Assembly: GCA_010015805.1 (NCBI GenBank)
Contig: ML978121.1
Span: 2,356,001-2,420,000 of the forward strand
From: Rhizodiscina lignyota
Taxonomy: Eukaryota
DNA: 64,000 bases
Reading direction: 5' to 3'
Within the stretch, counting starts at the first letter, position 1. Each line of letters starts with the position of its first letter. Of the stretch, positions 37,818 through 64,000 are shown one piece after another. A model generated the notes under the pieces. It made no database searches and was not told the origin of the DNA. It saw only the letters and a list, made by a program, of their open reading frames with translations. A program made the translations under genes and the position numbers.

Positions 37818-39513
37818 ATGGACGAGAAAAGGATTGAAGCAACCCATCCGGGAGAGCCGGAGGTTGCTCCGACTCCAGACTCGCGCGATATTCCCATTGA
37901 GATTTCGCCGGACAAGCTGGAATCTCTCCAGGTTGAGAACCTCGATCTCTCGGAGAAGCCGCTGCCGACCATTGAATTCACGGAGAAGGAGAAGAATGCC
38001 GTGATCAGGAAGCTTGACTGGCGCTTGATGCCTCTTATCTTCGTCCTGTACTCCCTCTCTGTGCTCGATCGGTCGAATCTTGGAAACGCTCGCCTGGCGG
38101 GACTCGTCCAGGATATCGATCTTACTGGCCGGAGATATGATTGGCTCGCAACTGTGTTCTACATCGCCTGTGAGTCCCTTGATCAATCGAGGTATCCCAT
38201 GAGTAGGCTGCTGATACAACAACAGATATCCTGTCACAATGGATGACGATCGGTTGGAAGGCATTCAAGCCGCACCACTGGGCCGCCTTCGCCGTTTTCG
38301 TCTGGGGCTTTGTTTCCACTATCCAGGCTGCCGTGACCAGCTGGGCCGGCTTGATGACCTGCAGAGTGTTCCTCGGTATCATCGAGGCTTGCTACGGTCC
38401 CGGTGTTCCGCTCTATCTGTCCTACTTTTACCCACGTGAGAGACTCGGATTTCGTGTCGGCTTCTTCCTGAGTGGTTCGGCACTCGCCAACGCCTATGGT
38501 GGCGCCCTCGCGTACGGTATCTCGCAAGCACGTGGTAGCATTGCGCCCTGGCAGATTCTGTTCATTGTGGAGGGCGTGCCGACTTGTGTCCTGGCAGTCT
38601 TCGCGTTCTTCTGGTTACCGGATTCACCCGAAACTTGCACTTTCTTGTCTGAGCGTGAGCGCGAAATCGCGATTGCAATCTCTCAACAGCAGCCTGGTGA
38701 TAGATCTGGCAAGAAGGGTCTGGACTCAAAGCAGCTGTTGGCATCGTTGATGGATCCCCGATGTAAGTCCCAACATATTGTCCGAATGAGACCAATTGCT
38801 AACAGAGCATAGCCTACCTCCCAGGTCTTTGCTACTTCGGGGCCAACATCTGCTTCGCTTCGCTGCCCCTCTTCGTCCCAACCATCATTTCGCAGATGGG
38901 TGCCTTCACGTCAATCCAGTCGCAAGGTCTCAGCGCTCCGCCATATCTGCTTACGTTCTTTGTCATCTGCTTCATCGCATGGGTATCAGACAAAGTCAAC
39001 TTCCGTGGACCTTTCGTCGCCGGCTTCGGCCTCGTTGGTGCCGTTGGCTACATTATTCTGGGCACGACTACTGGTGTTGGGCCCCGCTACTTCGGACTGT
39101 TCTTGGCTGCGATGATTTTCACATCCGTGGCGCAGCTGTTAGTCTGGGTGGGAAATACGCATGCCACAGACTCGAAGCGTGCAGGTGGTCTTGCGATTCT
39201 CGCAACCTTCGGCCAGTGTGGACCAGTCTTGGGGTGAGTTCGTCCCAATTGGAGTTGATTGATAAATTACTGACGAGAGTCCAGAACGAACGTATTCCCG
39301 ACCACTGATGCGCCATATTATAGGAAGGGCATGTGGGTCTCTTGCGGTGGTTGTTTGATTGTCTTCGTGTGCGGTACAATCCAGAGCATCTGTTTGTATC
39401 TGGAGAATAGGCACCTAGACAAGAAGTACGGGAAGGTCGAGAAGGGCGCGGCGCAGCATTTCGAGGTCACGACGAAGGATGGAACCGATCCTCGGTTTAG
39501 ATATGTGATCTGA
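37818..39513 (+). CDS. MFS transporter, anion:cation symporter (Dal5/Tna1-like) family; 4 exons
   Basis: IRKLDWRLMP, LDRSNLGNARLAG, YLSYFYPRERLGFR, WQILFIVEG, LPDSPE and C-terminal FRYVI motifs; introns at about 38170-38225, 38763-38812 and 39234-39284. Confidence 0.93.
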
Positions 39514-44059: not shown

Positions 44060-45676
44060 TCAATTACCAAACAACTCCGCCTTGCAACTCGGATCTACCA
44101 TCTCGAGCAACTCCAGCTCAAACTTTCCCAGCTCATCCTCCACCATCACCTTTCCTTGGCCATCCGCAGCCTTGCCCACATACGTCCACTTGACGCCATC
44201 TTCTTCTACCGCTCCATCCTCACTGCTTCTGAATTTCGACGCAGAACTCGTCTGCAACGCCCACTCCCCTAATGCTTTACACTGATACGCCGCCTTCCCA
44301 TCCGCATTCTTCCCACCCAGCTTATACCTCGCCCTGACACTCGCATGCACCATCTCATTCGTGTGCTGCAGCATCTCGCCCTCGATCGGCATTCCCGTCT
44401 TGTAGTCCGTGCGGTGGTACCTATCGGGCGTGCGCATGACGCTGCCGAGCCATTTGTAGAGGGTGGTGAGGGAGTTGTAGATGGGGCCGCAGCCCCAGCG
44501 GGGGGAGGTGATCTTTTGGGATTGGTTGTACGCGCGGTTGAGCGCGGTTTGGGTGGAGAGGTAGTTGCGGTCGAAGGAAATCCATTGCGAGAGGTTGGAC
44601 ATCATCCAGGCGAGGGAGATGTCTGCTACGCTCTGAGGAGAGGGTTAGCTTCAAGGTCATTTGACAGAGTATGAGCGCAATGGCTTACTGTATCCGGGCT
44701 GCCGCTGCCACCGCCGATGTTGCTGTGTGAACCGGCAAACCAGACCTGCTTAAGCTTCTAATCGAACACATTAGTACCGTATCATGAACCGGTCTAGCAG
44801 CTCGCTCACCGTTTGGCACCCATCACGCCGCTCCCAGACTGCAGGCGTGAATGCAGACCTGTGCTCATCAAGAGCAAGAGCCTGAAAGGCGTATTGAATA
44901 TGGTTATCAAGCGTAGTGTCATAGAACTGATACTCCTGAAACGCAGTCTTGCCGAACAAATTCTGGAGCCAGGGATGAATCGGCATGCCCAAAGCACCTA
45001 CTGTGTCCCAAACACCGATTGCCGTGATTTCCACTTCTTGGGCAAGGCCGCAGTTCAGCAACTCTAGACGATAGGAATCAAGATAGCTCTGGAGCTTGGC
45101 CGGGTCAGCTTTCAGAGTGAAGTCTTTGTTGACGATAGGTAGTTTCGGCTTGTATCCAGCGACTCCCGCATTTTCGTAGTCGGAGAAGCAGTCATAGAAG
45201 TTCCGCATGCCGTCCTTCGTCAGCAGACCAATGCTGCCAAGCATGCCACCAATGCTACGCGCTGTGAACGCGCCTCTCGAGAAGCCCACAAGGAAAATAG
45301 AGTCGCCGTCCATGTAATTGTTGGCGAGGAAGCCGTACGCCTCTCGAATGTTCTCTGAGAGTCCGGCGCCGGTCGCACCAGCGTAGAGATGGTCGAGCAT
45401 TGATATGGAGGTGCTGCCGACTCCTGCTTGATAGTAGACAACTTGAGCTTTGTGGTTCTCATCCTCTGGCAATGTGGCGCGGGTGAGATGCGTCACGTTT
45501 GACGGAGATTGGAGGCTGCCGTTCGAGAACATGCCGCCCTTCTCAAAGCCATTATCGCTGTTATCCCAGGTGCCTAGTCGCGTTAGTATCAAGAATACGA
45601 TGGCTTCAGATGACATTGGATTACCATCGCAACAGATGATGATCTTTTTGGACTGGTGTTCCAAAGCAGGCGCCAT
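44060..45676 (-). CDS. DUF2235 (T6SS Tle1-like alpha/beta hydrolase) domain protein; multi-exon
   Basis: KKIIICCDG|TW, SNV, YYQAGVG, LVGFSRGAFTARS (GxSxG), IGVWDTVGALG, QALALDEHRSAF and QVWFAGSHSNIGGG motifs; introns near 45575-45623, 44758-44809 and 44634-44688. Confidence 0.9.
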
Positions 45677-46985
45677 TACGGAAGAGGCGAATCTGCGGAG
45701 CAGGTTGTTTTGTAAATAGAAATCTGAAGGCAGAACTATAAGGACGCCGGAGGTCTAGAAACTGGGTTGGCGTTTTAGAACGAAACGGAATTAGAGAAGA
45801 GAGTCAAGAGTCAAGAGGAACGAGAAGGTATGAGTTACGGGTAAAGAAAATCAAAGGAACTTAGTAGGCAACAAGCACCTGGAGTGAGATTATGAGCAAA
45901 GGCTCCGGTAACAGCCGCTGAGACACATATTCATATTTATTGTGTTGAAAGTGCAATTGCCTTGAGAGCTCCTTCCAACTGGTGAAAGGCTGTGTGTGAC
46001 ATCCATTTCACAACGTGCCCATGTGAGTGAACAGAGGCTGAGGCTGGTGACCAACCATGTCGAGTCGCACTCACACACCAAGCTGCTCAGCCTAAATATT
46101 TGTAGAATAATATGATGACCAGTCTGGGGGAGTGTTTGCGCGGCCATTGCTGAAGTTTGGGATGCAATCAATCATTCGTTGCACAAACTGGGGCACGTAG
46201 GGCGCCGTGCCTTGGCTTGACAGGCAAATAAAGAACTCCTGCAGGTACTTCAAGCACTTGAAGTGAACTGAACGTCACAAGTACAGTTCAATTCAAGGCT
46301 CTGTCTGTACGGGTCATCATAGTTCCCTTTTAGGAACCAGGAAGGCGCTTCATATTAGCCCCCATTTGCCTCTGCTATAGAAGGAACAGGTCCACTCTAC
46401 AGCAACAGTCTCCTCGTGGCAGTTCACGTAGACGTTCGAGTTGTTCCAGAAATGGCCTACAGTTTCAGCTCGTACAGGCCAAAAAGTTTCCCCAGGGCTT
46501 GGTATAAGGTTGTGTGCCAGACAATGTCCTCGTGAGCCCTCTCCGCACTTCGAAATGGCCAATCGTCATGTCTTGCACAGCACCAGGTCGCTGTCCAAGG
46601 CATGGTATGGCTAGAACACAAGGGAGTAAGCGAGCATTTCCAGGAAGCCGTGGCCTTCGTTTCCATTTCGCTCCGGTCCGCTGGAAAGAGACGGTGATGC
46701 ACTGATGTCTGGCTGCGTTTTGGTGGTGAAAGGGGATGTACAGATGCGCTTATGTAATTAACGCCGCCGCTCAAAGAACACCTATGCGGAAAGCAGTAAG
46801 CTGCAGTGTCTAAATTTAAATTTCAACACCCACTGACTTCATCTCCATCTTTCGAACAAGTGCGTAATAACTCTCCGAAGTCGCCATAGCAACTGGACAC
46901 GTTCAGAAAATTCACGGGCGAAATTCCCCTCTGACACTGCGGAAGCTCTCCAAAAGACTGAGCTGCGGTCGCAGCAACCTCGAAA

Positions 46986-54400: not shown

Positions 54401-56049
54401 GACGAGCCGAACGAGCGAAAAGCGGGTCTCGTCAACTCCGGATCGTCGTCCCAAGATTGAGAGTCGCAAGGCTGAACGAACACTGGACTCGCACAAGCAG
54501 CCAAGGCTCGCGGTGGAATGCAGCAACGTCGCTCGCCTGCCGTGCGCCAGCACGCGAGAGGCTCCGCGAGCAGGCGCATGGAAAGCACGACGAAGAAGCG
54601 CTGCTGGCAAAGCGACGCTACACACGTCCACTGTATCTCAGACCGGTGAGCAATATGGGTCTCTGAACTGGGCCAGGATGATCGCCAGGATGGCGCGCAT
54701 GGAAGAGCAATCAGCGGCCTGCACGCTCAGACGAACAGCCGCCAGGGCGCATCGTGCTTGGGAATTGGGGCTGCTGGTACTTCCGCAACGGCGACAGCGC
54801 ATCATCCAACGTCGCGAGGGCTAATGGGAGGCTCAAAGGACGTTGCACCTCTCACATGTGTCGCCCGAGACGGCGCTGCTGGGAGCGTGGGAGGAGGGAG
54901 GAGGGAGGATGACGGCGGGCAGAGGGAGAGCCGGTGATACAGTGCCTCTCTTATTAACAAGCAGCGGATCATGATCCAGGGCAGCATCGCTGCTGCAATC
55001 GCGCTCTCCCCGCCCTTATCCCTATCCCTTCTGCTGACACTGGCACTGTGCCGTGCGTCTTCCATCGGCGTGCGTGAGTTGATCAAGCCATTGCGACGCC
55101 TCAGCAGTGCGCCGAGGCGATCTCCACCGCGTCACGACGGAGCAGACGCTATCGCCCATCTGCTCCATGCCCTCGCGAGCCCTCGCGCTCTGAGGCTGGC
55201 GTGGCGGCGATTGGCTGAGGCGCACGAGGCCGGGTGGTGGGCATCACGCACGCGTCCCGAGCGTCGCAGGTCACTAAGAGCAAGTTGCTTGGCCTCGAGC
55301 AGCACCGCTCGCCCTCCACCAGCACCCGCCGTGCGACGGCAATTGGCCGTGTGCCTCGACGCTCCGCCCGTCTTTTCTACACCACCACGCCAATCAATCG
55401 GCTGCGTTCCAACGCCCGTTCCCATCCCATCCATTCCCAAGCGCGCCCAAGTGCCGGTGCTTCCAGCTATACGAGCATCAGCCGCTGCGCACAGTTATCG
55501 CTGGCGCTGGCCCGTTCGCCTGCCATCCCACAACGACTATCAGCTCGCTCTCCCCGACGCGGTCGCATCCAGGCCAAAGCGCCCAGTGCATTGCGAAACT
55601 CGCCGCTCTGAAACATCACCACCACAAACTCCGTCCCTCGCTGCCTTTTTTTCTCCGCCCTATCACCACCATTGCTGCCCGTCTCCTCCTCCTCGACCAC
55701 TCGAGCGCCTGCATGCGTCACTGCACGCCGTTGCGCTCGTTTTTCCTGAGCCGCCCATTTGCGACGCCCCGCCGACTCGACCACTGACTCGACCTTTCAT
55801 CGCGACAATTGAACGCAACCACCGAAACCACTCTCGACGACGTCAACCCCACGCGCTGTTGACGCAACGCCGCAATTAAGCGTCAGTTCCATCGAGCATT
55901 CCGTCTCTCAAGCATTTCGCGACGAACTCGAACTTCTCCGTCCATACTTCACCCCAACGTCACGGCGGAGCTTGGTCGAGACCAACTCTTTGTTCGCACC
56001 CACCCCACTGGCACAGAAGAGCTGGAGGACAAAGCAAGAATTAGGTGTC

Positions 56050-57852
56050 ATGGCCGGCGGGCCGAGTCCCAGCAGTACGAGTCCTCCGGATACTAACAGT
56101 CCCTTCATACCCGGATCCTTCTCCTCCAGCGCCTCCTCTCCTCCCTCACACTCGTCCTCAGGCGCGAATCTTCTCTCGGCCAGCGCACTTGTAGGCGCGC
56201 CGGGATCCCTTTCGGGCGCGTACAATCGCGCCTCTATCAGCCCAATCAATGAACGCAAGCCCGCGGACAAGCAGATGGCATCGCTGTTAGGCTTTGGTTC
56301 GAAGCTGGAGCCGAGCAAGAGCAATCCCGAGATGGACGCCAATCCAACAATCTTTATACGCAAGCTGCCGCGCAATACTGGCATTGAGGCACTGCGCAGC
56401 ATGCTCCTCTTTGCAAAGGACCTGATTGACGTCGACTTTGTCCCGGCGGATATTCCGGACGATCAGAATTACGCCTCCGCGATTGCGCGATTTCGAACAC
56501 TCACTGGTGCGCATGAAGCAAGAGATAGGCTACATGGCAAGATCAATGCTGCGGGAGATGCCACCATGCTTGTGGATGTCTATCAGCATGGCATCATGGG
56601 CGCATTTGGCGGCAGGAGGAATACGATGGACTTGGGTGTGATGCGCAATGCGCCGACGGCGAACCATTCCATGCCTACAACGAATGGAAACGGTAACCGA
56701 CAGAGCTCAAGGTTCAATGGGACATTCCAGAGTCTCGAGAGACGCTCTCCGCCGAGTGCCAACGACCCGTTTCCCCCAGACTTGACTTCTCATAACATTC
56801 AGGGCCTCTTCTCACCAAAGTCGCCACTCGGATCTCACTACGTTCCCAACAAAGATAGTTACACTTCCTCAAAGGCAATGATCAACGACGATAACGAAGA
56901 CGATACGGGTAAGATTCTCGCTAATCCCGTCGAGTTCGCTATCAACGGAGAGACAAATCACAATATGACTTCCGCCCGACGTCCAACACAGCCAAATGTC
57001 TCTTCCATGAACTCCAGCCTCGCGGGTCTGTCTCTCAATACCAAGAGCCCTGGAGCGCAGGCATCTGGTAGCTCTGCTCCGATGAATAATTTCTCTTCTA
57101 CTCGCGCAATGTCGAACCTCCAATCGCCGGCCTCTGGCATCTCTCCGCACACCACCATACCTTCTGGCCCCCACCAATTCCAGGGCCTGTCCAACGCTGG
57201 CACGACAAATCATTCTTTCGGAGGGGGGCCTTATGGCGGACGCCACCAACTGCCGCCGGTCAACCCAGCCGATCAGAATCCGCCTTGCAACACCCTTTAC
57301 GTCGGGAATCTTCCACTCGACACGAGTGAAGACGAGCTGAAGGCCATGTTTAGCAAACAGCGCGGCTACAAGCGTCTGTGTTTCCGCACAAAGCAGAACG
57401 GACCGATGTGCTTTGTAGAATTCGAGGATGTAAGCTTTGCGACCAAGGCACTCAACGAGCTGTACGGCCATCCGCTCCACAACAGTGTCAAAGGCGGGAT
57501 AAGGCTTTCATTCTCCAAGAACCCTCTTGGTGTGCGAACTGGACAGTCTGGCCCTAATGGCGGCCTCTCTGGCCCAGGCGGACTTGGTATGAACAACATC
57601 CCGGCGCCTCCTGGTTTCAGCACTGCGAACGGTCCGCCTCCAGGGCTCTCTGCACCGCCCGGCCTAACGAGTTCCATGAGCGCAGGAAGTGGAATGGGAG
57701 GCAGCTCGTTTGGTGGGTGGGGCACGCACATGGGCGGCTTTGGCGCACCCAGCATGCGAACTCACAGCATATCCAGCAGTATGGGAGCGAGTGGGAGCGG
57801 CGGTAACTTTCCTGGCATGAACGGCGACTACGCTTACATGATGGGCCGCTGA
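56050..57852 (+). CDS. WHI3: Whi3/Whi4/Scw1-like RRM RNA-binding protein
   Basis: C-terminal PVNPADQNPPCNTLYVGNLP...KRLCFRTKQNGPMCFVEFEDV...GGIRLSFSKNPLGVR is characteristic of the family; a degenerate N-terminal RRM (TIFIRKLP) is also present. Confidence 0.93.
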   Translation: MAGGPSPSSTSPPDTNSPFIPGSFSSSASSPPSHSSSGANLLSASALVGAPGSLSGAYNRASISPINERKPADKQMASLLGFGSKLEPSKSNPEMDANPTIFIRKLPRNTGIEALRSMLLFAKDLIDVDFVPADIPDDQNYASAIARFRTLTGAHEARDRLHGKINAAGDATMLVDVYQHGIMGAFGGRRNTMDLGVMRNAPTANHSMPTTNGNGNRQSSRFNGTFQSLERRSPPSANDPFPPDLTSHNIQGLFSPKSPLGSHYVPNKDSYTSSKAMINDDNEDDTGKILANPVEFAINGETNHNMTSARRPTQPNVSSMNSSLAGLSLNTKSPGAQASGSSAPMNNFSSTRAMSNLQSPASGISPHTTIPSGPHQFQGLSNAGTTNHSFGGGPYGGRHQLPPVNPADQNPPCNTLYVGNLPLDTSEDELKAMFSKQRGYKRLCFRTKQNGPMCFVEFEDVSFATKALNELYGHPLHNSVKGGIRLSFSKNPLGVRTGQSGPNGGLSGPGGLGMNNIPAPPGFSTANGPPPGLSAPPGLTSSMSAGSGMGGSSFGGWGTHMGGFGAPSMRTHSISSSMGASGSGGNFPGMNGDYAYMMGR

Positions 57853-59564: not shown

Positions 59565-60956
59565 ATGATGCTGGTCGCTCTCGTCGCCTTCTCTTCCTGT
59601 CTTGCGTCGGCGCTGGAGGCGCAGCAAAGGCAACCAATGGAGCGACACCACGACTTAATCCGTCCTCGAGATGGCCTTCTGCATGCTGGATCAAATGCAT
59701 CACGCACCTCGACAGTGAGGGTCCAACATACCTTTGGCGCGAGCGCCCAATCATACCAGTTGGCAAATCACACGACCGTCTCCGAACGCGTATCCATCGC
59801 CGCCTCGATTTCACCAACAGCTCGACCGACTTCTGTGAATGGCTCCACAGACGGAGCTGTTTCTGTGCAGGGAGCCTTGTTGCTGGGAGAATCTTCATCA
59901 GGCGCGGAGGCACCTCAGGGGACTAGGGAAGTAACTGCGGCCGGCGCTACGATGAGCTGGGATGAGCTCTGGACACATTCGAGCCATTCGACCGGTACCG
60001 CAGCAGCAGCAGCCGAAACAACATTCACACTGGGTGGACAAACTGCATCTTCGACGAACAGTTGGGACGAGGCCTGGACGCTGTCATCATCCATCATTGT
60101 GCCCGAGTCATCTGCGCACAATCCAGACTCGGGCAGTCATGGCCACTCGACACTGACGATATACGCGCCGACAACATCAAACTCACACCTTGTACATCAT
60201 TCGTCCGCATTTTTACCATTGCCCACACGTGTCTCTGCAACCGACGCAACGTTAACGACCACAATCTCTCCCGGCGTATTTTCAGCCTCGTTCGTTTTGG
60301 TGTCAACATCCATATCGAAACCTGTACATCATTCGTCTGCATCTTTATCATTGCCCACGGCGATTTCTGCAACTGACGCAACGCTCGCGACCACAATCTC
60401 TCCTGGCATATCCACAGCCTCGTTCCCGATCTCTTTGCGCCCATCGACAGCTTCATCACCTAATACCCACGTTACCACTACCATTCCGGTCGACACATTC
60501 TCGACTTCCTTCGTCCTCGCATCTTCTCTTTCACAAGCACAGTCACTTGCTCCAACTCATGCCGCAAGCGCCATTTCATCCATAGGAAGCACATCCTCAA
60601 CCTCATTCATATTTGCGTCTTCATCATTATCAGGTTCGCCATCCATGCTTACCGATTCGCGAGGCACGGCAGCTAGGACGACTACGTTGATGCTCGGCGG
60701 AGGTGGCACGACGTCAACGCACTCGGCAAGTGCGATCGATCCGCTCACGGGCGATGGCACAACGAAAGAGACTTCGACGTCCACTTCAGTGGCAGTTCCT
60801 TCGGGGGACGGAACCGAGAGTGGGAATGGGGAGGACTTGCCGAATGTACCGACTGATGCAGCGCCGCTGTCCGCTGGGAGTGCGATGAGGGTTGACATAT
60901 GGCACTGGACTGTGGCCTTGACGTTTGTTTTCTTGGGCTTTATTTGGCGTTTGTGA
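59565..60956 (+). CDS. Ser/Thr-rich secreted, probably GPI-anchored cell-wall protein
   Basis: Signal peptide MMLVALVAFSSCLASA; S/T-rich body with a 132-nt internal duplication (60191/60323); small-residue omega-like region (SAGSA) followed by the hydrophobic tail WHWTVALTFVFLGFIWRL. Confidence 0.8.
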   Translation: MMLVALVAFSSCLASALEAQQRQPMERHHDLIRPRDGLLHAGSNASRTSTVRVQHTFGASAQSYQLANHTTVSERVSIAASISPTARPTSVNGSTDGAVSVQGALLLGESSSGAEAPQGTREVTAAGATMSWDELWTHSSHSTGTAAAAAETTFTLGGQTASSTNSWDEAWTLSSSIIVPESSAHNPDSGSHGHSTLTIYAPTTSNSHLVHHSSAFLPLPTRVSATDATLTTTISPGVFSASFVLVSTSISKPVHHSSASLSLPTAISATDATLATTISPGISTASFPISLRPSTASSPNTHVTTTIPVDTFSTSFVLASSLSQAQSLAPTHAASAISSIGSTSSTSFIFASSSLSGSPSMLTDSRGTAARTTTLMLGGGGTTSTHSASAIDPLTGDGTTKETSTSTSVAVPSGDGTESGNGEDLPNVPTDAAPLSAGSAMRVDIWHWTVALTFVFLGFIWRL

Positions 60957-61598
60957 TTATATACCAATAGATACGAAGGAGAGAGCGATATTGTGAAATG
61001 TTTATAATAGAAGGAACATCGGCGAGCAACTTCGAAACCACAACGAGTGTTTCAACGAGCCATCCCTTTAGAATATGGGAAAGGCGAAAGGCTCAAGTAA
61101 CTTACACCATTAGTATATAATGAAACTAAGAACTGTGAATGAAGAAACCAACAGCCCAGGCTGAGCAACAAAGAGACTCGATGGCAATCAAAAATTCGAG
61201 ATGGACTCGTGGCAACACATGTGGCGTTCGGCAGACGATGCCCCTCTCAACGTCTGCGCACCAATGCCGACGGCACACTTCTCCATAAGCATTTCGCCAT
61301 CTCAAAAAATGTGATATGATGATATTACTGTTACAAGTAATCAAAGTAATACATGCGGAAGCTGGGGCCCCGCGATGTTACGGAAGTTTGCTTCCCGTTG
61401 AAGATCTCCAGTCTCTCCAGGCCTGTGGTCTGAAATCAAATTCTCCTTCCTTTCCTTCATATTCTCTCTTATTTGCTACCCTTCGTTCTTCTTTGTCGCG
61501 AAAAGGTTAAAGCTAGAATTGCCAGAGCAGTCGAAGCCAGGATAGGGGCACTTCCTCTCGCTCTCCTAAATGCTGACAGACATCACCACTCTCTAAGC

Positions 61599-62543
61599 AT
61601 GGGCAAGCCTACAACAGGAGGCTTCGAAAAGACATCGGACTGGCTAGATTGGTATGCGGATCCCAGTAGGCCGACATTCAAGCTGCCACCGGGAGCGGTC
61701 GATTCACATTGTCACGTCTTCGGTCCTGGTGCTCAGTTCCCCTACGCTCCAGAGAGAAAATACACCCCTTGCGACGCGAGTAAAGACCAACTTTTCGCTC
61801 TGAGGGACCACTTGGGCTTTACCCGCAATGTCATTGTCCAGGCCACATGCCACGGAGCGGACAACAGCGCGCTTGTAGACGCTTGTCGTGCTGCTAACGG
61901 GCGAGCAAGAGGCGTTGGAACTGTGAAGCGAACTGTCACAGATGAAGAGCTGCAGCGATTGCACGGCGCTGGTGTACGCGGCGTGCGATTCAACTTCGTG
62001 AAACGCCTCGTTGACTTCACCCCGAAGGACGAACTGCAAGAGATCGCCGCGAGGATAGCAAAGCTGGGGTGGCACGTCGTGATCTATTTCGAGGCACAGG
62101 ACCTCCCCGAGCTGTGGGACTTCTTCACCAGCATCCCGACTACGGTGGTGGTGGACCACATGGGACGGCCGGATGTTAGCAGAGGTGTTGACAGCGAGGA
62201 GTTTGCGCTCTTCTTGAAGTTCGTGCGTGAGCATGAGAACGTCATGACGAAGGTGACGTGTCCGGAGCGGCTGACGAAGTCTGGTCCGAGAGCACTGAAT
62301 GGGGAGAAGAACGCGTATACGGACGTTGTGCCTTTTGCGCGGAAGCTGGTGGAAGAGTTTCCAGACAGGGTGCTTTGGGGTACGGATTGGCCGCATCCGA
62401 ACCTGAAGAGCCATATGCCGGACGACGGGCTGCTCGTCGATTTTATTCCACATATCGCACCAACAGAAGAGCTGCAGCGGAAATTACTCGTTGATAATCC
62501 GACGCGGTTATATTGGCCCGAGTTAGCTGGGAAAACATCATAA
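61599..62543 (+). CDS. ligI: 2-pyrone-4,6-dicarboxylate lactonase/hydrolase (LigI/PmdD, amidohydrolase superfamily), bacterial type
   Basis: VDSHCHVFGP, APERKYTPCDA, VIVQATCHGADN, GVRGVRFNFVKRLVD, VVDHMGRPD and VLWGTDWPHPN motifs; intronless coding region. Confidence 0.93.
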   Translation: MGKPTTGGFEKTSDWLDWYADPSRPTFKLPPGAVDSHCHVFGPGAQFPYAPERKYTPCDASKDQLFALRDHLGFTRNVIVQATCHGADNSALVDACRAANGRARGVGTVKRTVTDEELQRLHGAGVRGVRFNFVKRLVDFTPKDELQEIAARIAKLGWHVVIYFEAQDLPELWDFFTSIPTTVVVDHMGRPDVSRGVDSEEFALFLKFVREHENVMTKVTCPERLTKSGPRALNGEKNAYTDVVPFARKLVEEFPDRVLWGTDWPHPNLKSHMPDDGLLVDFIPHIAPTEELQRKLLVDNPTRLYWPELAGKTS

Positions 62544-62631
62544 CGCCAAAAATGCTCGAGTGTATTGAGCAGCCTGAACTGTCAAACTCAAAGTGCTTCT
62601 AAAGATCGTACTGCGAGTCTTGTCATTCGCA

Positions 62632-63678
62632 CTAATACGCATACATGCCGCCGTCGACTGCAATGACTTTGTTGTTGACATATGCATTCTTCACCATCCA
62701 GACGACCGTCTCCGCGATCTCGGCAGGTCTACCCAGTCGGCCCACAGGTATTTCTGTGAATGTCAGTTTGGGAGAATATATGAGAGCTTTGAGATGAGCA
62801 TACTCTTTTCTAGCTCTTCTACTCTCCCCGGCAACATTGTCGTCTCTTGGATAAGAGCAGGCGCGATCCCATTCACTGTAATGCCTTTCTTCGCATATGC
62901 CATTGCGAGCCAGTGTACCAATCCGTGCATGGCTGACTTTGAGCTCCTGAAATGCGGTCAAAACTGGATTGATCACGATATTTCGAGCATTGCGGGGTTA
63001 TTGAGAATCCATCACTTGTGTGACTTTGTAGGACATAAGAGTAGACTCACGCGTAATGCGGTCCCACCACTCCTCCTGTAAAAGCCGCGACGCTACTACA
63101 GAAGATGACTCTTCCCCATGCGTTCTTCTCCATCGCTGGGATGCAAAGCTGGGTGAGCAGATATGCCGATCCGCAATTCGCCTTCCACGTGAGCTCAAAT
63201 TGCTCCAGCGAGATTTCGCTGACGTCTTTGACGCCATGCTTGATCGTTATCCCGGCGTTGTTGAACAATATCGTGGGATCACCCAGCGACTCGACGACGT
63301 CCTTGTAGAGCTTCCGGACCTTGATTTGGAATTATAAGAGTCTGACGCTGGAATTTGCGCTGTTTGCTCATTGACACAAAGGCAACCGGAGAATGAATAT
63401 TGTGGACGTGGACAAAATGTATGGCAGGACGCTGTAAACTTCGAGATCTGGCATACCTGATCGTAGTCGCTCATGTCTGCTTGAAATGCCTTCGCCTTGA
63501 TACCTTGTGCTTCGAAATCTTTCAGCATTTCCTCCGCAATGCTCTTCGCCTGATTGTAATGGATGGCAATGGTACATCCCATCTTTGCGAGGGAATAGCA
63601 TGTTGCCTTGCCGATCCCGCCAGTGCCACCTGTTATGAGAGCGATATGCCCGGTTAGATCAGTAGTGATGATCGACAT
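62632..63678 (-). CDS. Classical short-chain dehydrogenase/reductase (FabG-like); 4 exons
   Basis: ITGGTGGIG, FNNAG, SS, spliced HYA|SSK (YxxxK), VNGIAP and VIAVDGG motifs; introns 63456-63320, 63050-62947 and about 62803-62754. Confidence 0.92.
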
Positions 63679-64000
63679 GCTTGAGGAATTGAAAGAAAAG
63701 CCCTTCGATGCGTGTATCCAAGAGAGTATTCAATATTCAAATAATGGACATTTGTGTTTAAGTCCGAGATACTTTCTCAGATTAGAAATGGATAAGGGAC
63801 TCGGTGAAATGACCGGGGAATATCTCTAAAAGACTCCAAGACAAGACAATGATAACGTCAGCCTCGACAACTTCGAAGGGACTCCGTGAATTGTATACCT
63901 ATTGAACAACGTGAATTTTGAAAGTATGTATTTCAATCAATGGCATTGGAGAAAGTTGAATGAGTCATGGTAGCCAGTGACTCGGGGCGAAGGGGGACCC

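Follow-up and report, generated by a model that had tools for sequence, protein, structure and literature searches.

An orphan, predicted PDC lactonase gene shared by three classes of filamentous ascomycetes and Burkholderiales-type proteobacteria

The genome of Rhizodiscina lignyota carries a gene for a predicted 2-pyrone-4,6-dicarboxylate (PDC) lactonase of the LigI/PmdD type, almost certainly of bacterial origin, within the 64,000-nucleotide stretch of DNA analysed here, referred to as the window. In the reading that we prefer, a pmdD/ligI gene would have passed from a Burkholderiales-type proteobacterium to filamentous ascomycetes long ago, most likely once, and this single intronless gene would have persisted in scattered lineages via many losses, fungus-to-fungus spread, or both. 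The lactonase would act as a naturalised cytosolic enzyme for the reversible hydrolysis of PDC to 4-oxalomesaconate. Taken as a whole, the combination of an old, most likely single transfer, a naturalised PDC hydrolase and a salvage supply of its substrate is one that we hold to be somewhat more probable than its opposite. PDC is generally regarded as an intermediate of bacterial metabolism and a product for industry, and LigI/PmdD belongs to the bacterial protocatechuate 4,5-cleavage route for lignin- and tannin-derived aromatics. That an orphan PDC lactonase has been kept with little change in three fungal classes suggests that some fungi encounter PDC and metabolise it.

The open reading frame is intact, running on the forward strand from an ATG at 61599 to a TAA that ends at 62543, with zero internal stops and no need for an intron.

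61599..62543, + strand: predicted PDC lactonase coding sequence, LigI/PmdD-type, Amidohydro_2, intronless, 314 aa (translation, Pfam and PDB match)
62283..62318, + strand: GPRALNGEKNAY segment, residues 229–240, with an 8-residue insertion relative to solved LigI (gap in the LigI alignment)

By sequence, the product is a PDC lactonase of the LigI/PmdD type (EC 3.1.1.57), in line with the original prediction, as it can be aligned over its full length with PmdD of Comamonas testosteroni (81% identity) and contains the motifs named there. FEKTSDWLDWY in the window protein stands against FEKTPGWLDWY in the C. testosteroni enzyme, and GPRALNGEKNAY corresponds to its GPKALDGEQNAY. The TIM-barrel domain Amidohydro_2 (PF04909) spans residues 34–305 with 210 bits, and LigI (PDB 4d8l) is matched over residues 16–308 with an E-value of 4.2e-107. 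In the alignment, H37, H39, Y55, R130 and R136 correspond to H31, H33, Y49, R124 and R130 of LigI, and Y163, H187, R224, D263 and N268 to Y156, H180, R217, D248 and N253. We take Asp248, His31, His33 and His180 of LigI to be catalytic and Arg124, Arg130, Arg217, Tyr49, Tyr156 and Asn253 to bind the substrate, roles that reportedly go back to Hobbs et al. 2012. The Asp altered in the mutant LigI chains 4dia and 4di8 aligns with D263. Across the protein alignment these active-site positions were invariant except for R136 and Y55, both conserved to at least 90%. Based on the similarity to LigI/PmdD, we consider the predicted PDC lactonase activity highly likely. In the copy of Oidiodendron maius Zn (P0131), a Gly replaces the conserved Asp two residues before His-x-His, along with two other odd changes; its close cluster mates retain the usual residues, and decay or a sequencing error is possible.

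Since no LigAB or LigC to make PDC was found in the host genome, PDC would arise when native intradiol dioxygenases cleave gallate-type rings as a side activity, or else be taken up from plant tissue or neighbouring bacteria. The host genome contains five intradiol dioxygenase loci and eight loci of the tannase/feruloyl esterase family. PDC is an intermediate of soil bacteria. PDC formation from gallate is described for the bacterial intradiol enzyme PcaHG in the accessible part of PMC12481942, at a modest level in Acinetobacter. The intradiol enzymes native to the fungus might therefore yield PDC as a side reaction, the gallate-to-PDC precedent being limited to bacterial PcaHG. Within plants, PDC amounts to 0.1–2% of Rosoideae tissue according to the accessible text of PMC9415522. 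The product would be handled by unrelated native enzymes, namely a PrpF-family isomerase, a hydratase and an RraA-like aldolase, or be excreted; homologues of RraA-like aldolases occur in all kingdoms (PMC5065237, accessible part), so the presence of such genes in the host proves little. In Aspergillus niger, gallate is used via the monooxygenase GacA, with none of 17 ring-cleavage enzymes needed (PMC10512348, accessible part), which by analogy would count against a central role for the lactonase; the same text describes the later part of the route by which filamentous fungi degrade gallate as unresolved. For a salvage role, with PDC from gallate side-cleavage or from plants or bacteria, we see the chances as evenly balanced. 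An undescribed hybrid fungal route for gallate or tannin-derived rings appears doubtful; in it, a native intradiol dioxygenase would yield PDC, the bacterial lactonase would open the lactone, and enzymes of the host's own PrpF, hydratase and RraA families would lead to pyruvate and oxaloacetate. If it were true, the gene would be a marker either of PDC catabolism as a fungal pathway or of fungi that feed on PDC from bacteria and plants, relevant to bark, wood and root fungi of the three classes.

A gene of the same origin may instead do another job, hydrolysing a different lactone or running in reverse from 4-oxalomesaconate to PDC as an end product or chelator that is excreted. LigI is reversible and forms PDC from oxalomesaconate below pH 7 (PMC13047686, accessible part), which would allow a reverse role; however, the genome searches turned up no enzyme of LigAB or GalA type that would make oxalomesaconate. 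The lack of a convincing downstream pathway in the host genome agrees with a different role, as does the membership in the family of 4-sulfomuconolactone hydrolase, which acts on other lactones (NF042924, 221 of 500 bits). The window protein nevertheless keeps all aligned active-site and carboxylate-binding positions as in LigI and differs from PmdD by less than 20% despite saturated synonymous sites. Altogether, another job seems to us unlikely, and the preferred reading of the enzyme remains PDC hydrolysis.

Both protein searches scored 8000 candidates and listed at least 120 matches each. The best 80 prokaryote-genome loci encode proteins 77–84% identical to the window protein, and by NCBI rank 62 of the 80 belong to Burkholderiales, 48 of them to Comamonadaceae. 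Proteins of the latter family are 81–84% identical, compared with 31–34% for the three native paralogues, the further family members in the host genome. This identity, the shared insertion and N-terminal motif and a joint branch in the trees bear out the proposed origin from Burkholderiales-type bacteria.

Looking up 30 proteins named 11 fungal taxa, all of them Sordariomycetes or Leotiomycetes. The carriers include Seiridium cupressi, S. cardinale, S. unicorne, Truncatella angustata, Annulohypoxylon stygium and A. nitens, and further carriers are A. sp. FPYF3050, Rostrohypoxylon terebratum, Thozetella sp. PMI_491, O. maius and Phialocephala subalpina. Four carriers were placed by taxon look-up, in Amphisphaeriales, Xylariales, Chaetosphaeriales and Leotiomycetes. 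The host itself was placed with a neighbouring gene.

55972..57852, + strand: Whi3-like RRM gene (class placement of the host)

Among the matches listed, the best named relative of the Whi3-like protein was Aulographum hederae (Dothideomycetes; 59%); 48 of the 120 listed rows carry species names, and 47 of these 48 relatives we take to be Dothideomycetes. The host is a Dothideomycete, with no finer placement from these relatives. The fungal group of the lactonase therefore spans three classes, Dothideomycetes, Sordariomycetes (three orders) and Leotiomycetes. None of the 48 named Whi3-like relatives appeared among the lactonase matches listed, and the scattered copies in Dothideomycete, Sordariomycete and Leotiomycete lineages among those matches hint at the patchy fungal distribution that had been expected.

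The metagenome scan, in which a protein could be extracted from 78 of 80 loci, added one member of the fungal group, contig L145, whose likewise intronless copy is accompanied by HET, ankyrin, MFS and zinc-dehydrogenase frames. Because of these neighbours L145 is fungal by context. The gene next to its lactonase on the upstream side, on the same strand, encodes an MFS transporter and is broken by introns (L145:3300–4300, +); it is a candidate uptake partner. No flanking synteny was found between the window and L145. Three ESM Atlas clusters shown were PDC lactonase or amidohydrolase and labelled 100% bacterial, and were uninformative on range.

In a FastTree of 222 rows every named fungal row fell into one 34-row group with support 97; with 308 rows the fungal group comprised 37 rows and its support was down to 80. 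An IQ-TREE quick tree of 88 rows yielded a 26-row fungal group with an SH-aLRT of 98, inside a Burkholderiales-dominated branch at 99. This group consists of nine named fungi (window included), L145, six 90% cluster mates of named fungi and ten rows without taxon or context. The N-terminal motif pattern occurred in 26/26 fungal-group and 44/44 Burkholderiales-type rows but in 0/18 rows of the more distant proteobacterial outgroup, and the GPxALxGE insertion pattern in 25/26, 44/44 and 0/18, respectively. The set was then reduced by 37 rows, of which 14 belonged to the distant outgroup and 23 were near-duplicates and extra bacterial rows. In the resulting 51-row trees the 24 rows of Burkholderiales type were recovered as one branch at 94/99, although the bootstrap had not settled, and the outgroup joined among the fungal rows. 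The fungal group and the Burkholderiales-type rows together made one branch, split from other proteobacterial LigI, at 99 with 88 rows and at 100/99 with 51 rows, and within it the fungal group is stably separated from PmdD of the Burkholderiales type. The expected nesting within Betaproteobacteria depended on the root: it was seen in the 88-row tree, whereas two 51-row trees placed the root among the fungal rows.

These trees also bear on the number of transfers. Several independent transfers from one poorly sampled bacterial lineage, with the host copy as its own event, would agree with the star-like base, where fungal identities between orders (72–82%) are no higher than fungal–bacterial ones (75–83%), with the outgroup joining among fungal rows in both 51-row trees, with the window and L145 having no common flanking synteny, and with the ten fungal-group rows without taxon or context. 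However, no named bacterium lies inside the fungal group among the 80 genome loci and the named proteins, and S271 is found in 26/26 fungal-group rows as against 0/44 Burkholderiales-type rows, though it is common in the outgroup too. Constraining the 23 fungal-group rows to one clade was 9.7 log-likelihood units worse and was not rejected (p-AU 0.349). Repeated transfers are hence quite improbable in our assessment, and a single transfer is preferred.

The inner order of the fungal group departs from the species tree. Trees forced to keep Xylariomycetidae (p-AU 0.196) or Sordariomycetes (p-AU 0.354) as one clade were not rejected, so the gene may have been inherited vertically and lost many times, or may have spread from fungus to fungus; as an established fact, fungus-to-fungus transfer is unsupported by these same tests.

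Several properties show that the gene is old in fungi and under purifying selection, namely host-like codons, saturated synonymous sites, low pN and similarity to bacterial DNA confined to the coding sequence. The GC3 of the lactonase was 0.63, within the 0.48–0.66 of eight host frames, compared with a median of 0.88 (range 0.61–0.97) for 80 bacterial copies. Its codon score of +0.46 likewise fell into the host range of +0.36 to +0.88, and the eight bacterial copies scored were negative. Against nine other copies, pN was 0.105–0.158 and far below pS, which was saturated at 0.73–0.89. The domestication originally proposed is consistent with all three measures. At the DNA level the lactonase reached at most 74% nucleotide similarity to the bacterial loci, over the coding sequence only, and a blastn of window positions 60001–64000 against the 80 bacterial loci matched only 61595–62523, which rejects co-transfer of flanking bacterial DNA. 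A recent or lineage-specific transfer was rejected as well, given synonymous sites saturated against all nine copies and a gene found across classes. Of the transfer first suggested, the bacterium-to-fungus direction stands; it is not private to this host, the fungal group being old and extending across three classes.

In 79 of the 80 bacterial loci at least one of ligA, ligB, ligC, ligJ and ligK lies within 6 kb. No similarity to these five genes was detected in the window, in the 24 kb beyond it or in L145, and the observation that no bacterial operon genes adjoin the lactonase held for the window and those 24 kb. Across the host genome, exon-wise matching in an assembly that may be incomplete found no bacterial-type ligA, ligB, ligC, ligJ or ligK, and the search for ligAB, ligC, ligJ and ligK equivalents returned only remote family members, those for LigU, LigJ (or GalB) and LigK falling below the cut-offs. 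Since none of the five was found, the lactonase stands as an orphan that on its own gives the fungus no 4,5-cleavage catabolism, and the original prediction that it enables gallate or syringate catabolism is not borne out.

That the gene completes a bacterial-like protocatechuate 4,5-cleavage or gallate/syringate pathway is very unlikely, although the genome holds remote kin in two LigB-domain, two PrpF-family, two RraA-like and one LigJ-like gene. Both LigB-domain genes scored best as 4,5-DOPA dioxygenase, and the C. testosteroni LigB query had no match in the host genome; fungal LigB-type proteins form a single, DOPA-type clade in the accessible part of PMC12420386. The LigA family PF07746 had no match in the host genome, with control genomes empty too. 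The LigC query gave eight host matches of just 25–33% that covered the N-terminal part only, and the LigJ query one match of 29% to a LigJ-like amidohydrolase. Two RraA-like matches to LigK (30–32%) reached at most 65 of the 304-bit cut-off, and the better of the two PrpF-family genes 294 of the 440 bits for OMA tautomerase, so that none of the candidate downstream enzymes attained its family cut-off. The single host PIG-L gene had no NCBIfam match.

The candidates are moreover scattered: none lies near the lactonase or near another, and a scan of 16 stretches of 10 kb round the ligU/J/K/B-like genes (120 of 131 frames of at least 165 aa) found no pathway cluster, the neighbours being mostly housekeeping or unrelated genes. 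On contig C14 (618029–620726) one gene, apparently interrupted by a single intron, joins a PrpF-family domain to an MmgE/PrpD domain. Judged by its domains, this fusion could in principle act on oxalomesaconate-like acids as a pairing of isomerase and hydratase type; its score is too low for the cut-off of OMA tautomerase, and none of its neighbours belongs to an aromatic pathway. A frame on contig C26 (57969–59024) matches LtrA (bacterial low temperature requirement A, PF06772).

The lactonase gene is single-copy and lies on a 4.06-Mb contig (C1) of the 33.4-Mb assembly, whose other genes include ArgRS, Spt20, Sec63, the Whi3-like RRM gene, an SDR, NudE and acetyl-CoA carboxylase (ACC1).

59565..60956, + strand: Ser/Thr-rich secreted or GPI-type gene, 463 aa, upstream neighbour (no Pfam match; signal and tail by eye)
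62632..63678, − strand: short-chain dehydrogenase (SDR), three GT-AG introns, convergent downstream neighbour (introns read by eye)

The upstream protein has a hydrophobic N-terminus and a C-terminal tail, judged by eye to be of the GPI type, and its gene contains a two-copy internal repeat of ~45 codons (window 60170–60420, +). Downstream, the lactonase and SDR genes converge with only 88 bases between the two stop codons, so their 3′ UTRs probably overlap. One sequencing-run contig covers the gene and both junctions without differences, at a depth of 142.9 compared with 147.1 for the next long contig; it agrees with the predicted linkage, as a check that is not independent, since the run may be the assembly's own source. 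The fungal location that had been read from the flanks is confirmed by the ordinary fungal genes on this contig. Bacterial contamination or a chimeric assembly, suggested by how closely the protein resembles bacterial ones and by the absence of introns, is next to impossible and was ruled out, since the 4.06-Mb contig holds ArgRS, Sec63, Whi3-like, NudE and ACC1, codons are host-like, nucleotide identity to bacteria is at most 74% and limited to the coding sequence, other fungal assemblies contain the gene, and the non-independent run contig spans both junctions. Farther upstream, the window contains a Tle1-like phospholipase domain frame (PF09994, 219 bits; 44774–45754, −), an FAD-dependent monooxygenase frame (PF01494; 41468–43723, +) ~18 kb upstream of the lactonase and, accompanying this monooxygenase frame, an MFS transporter gene at ~38200–39300.

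Two further elements precede the start codon.

61440..61500, + strand: pyrimidine-rich tract, putatively of the fungal core-promoter kind (sequence)
61570..61598, + strand: leader with TGCTGAC at 61571–61577, possible AAG acceptor (AG at 61596–61597) and upstream ATG at 61570 (sequence)

A branch-like TGCTGAC (61571–61577) and a TAAG (61594–61597) had been read as hints of a 5′ UTR intron, and both occupy the positions given for them. A branch word with an AG at most 5 bases before the ATG occurs at 22 of 2206 window ATGs by a strict definition and at 52 of 2206 by a loose one; the combination is uncommon, was noticed post hoc and weakly suggests a candidate 5′ UTR intron, whose acceptor would read AAG. 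A sequence scan found no GTRAGT donor in 61300–61560, and by eye no branch-like word was seen before the L145 lactonase start. The ATG at 61570 is out of frame and opens an 8-codon frame with its stop 2 bases short of the main ATG. Both the window (61570–61596) and L145 have an out-of-frame ATG ~30 bases before the start; the short frames end just before or after the start and encode unrelated peptides, and the common upstream ATG is likely due to chance.

The transfer event is already on record. In the accessible part of PMC5148876 (Table 4), Schlegel et al. 2016 list P. subalpina PAC_14321 as horizontally transferred and also present in O. maius, with Curvibacter lanceolatus (Burkholderiales) as its closest non-fungal relative and an empty function column; a text search of the nine supplements gave no match. 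As a case of horizontal transfer the gene is thus ordinary, the event being published and single-gene transfers being common in Pezizomycotina. We found no published fungal LigI, nor a report of spread to other classes, in a search with most subscription journals outside its range; no fungal LigI is named in the accessible parts of PMC12773724, PMC4624724, PMC12420386 and PMC8896014. The last of these reports for 30 Ceratocystidaceae genomes that meta-cleavage genes were not identified except for an aldehyde dehydrogenase. New here are the identity as a PDC lactonase, as assigned by sequence, the spread over three classes and the orphan state.

Compared with these known systems, PAC_14321 is 82% identical to the window protein and, together with the O. 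maius copy (81–82%), falls into the same fungal group. Whereas Table 4 of PMC5148876, as far as accessible, covers two Leotiomycetes only, the enzyme is identified here and Dothideomycetes and three Sordariomycete orders are added. The 4-sulfomuconolactone hydrolase model (NF042924), of the same subfamily of amidohydrolases, scores the window protein at 221 bits (E 2.5e-65; cut-off 500) and C. testosteroni PmdD alike at 217 bits, a match at the family level only. Relative to LigI (4d8l, 4dia, 4di8), the window protein has an 8-residue insertion after residue 230, and at the position of LigI Ser77 it carries Thr, as in PmdD. The Burkholderiales-type PmdD of C. testosteroni is 81% identical to it over 305 aligned residues and collinear, with the N-terminal motif and the insertion in common. 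In contrast to the Burkholderiales-type genes, the window gene stands alone in a fungal chromosome, with a GC3 of 0.63 against their median of 0.88.
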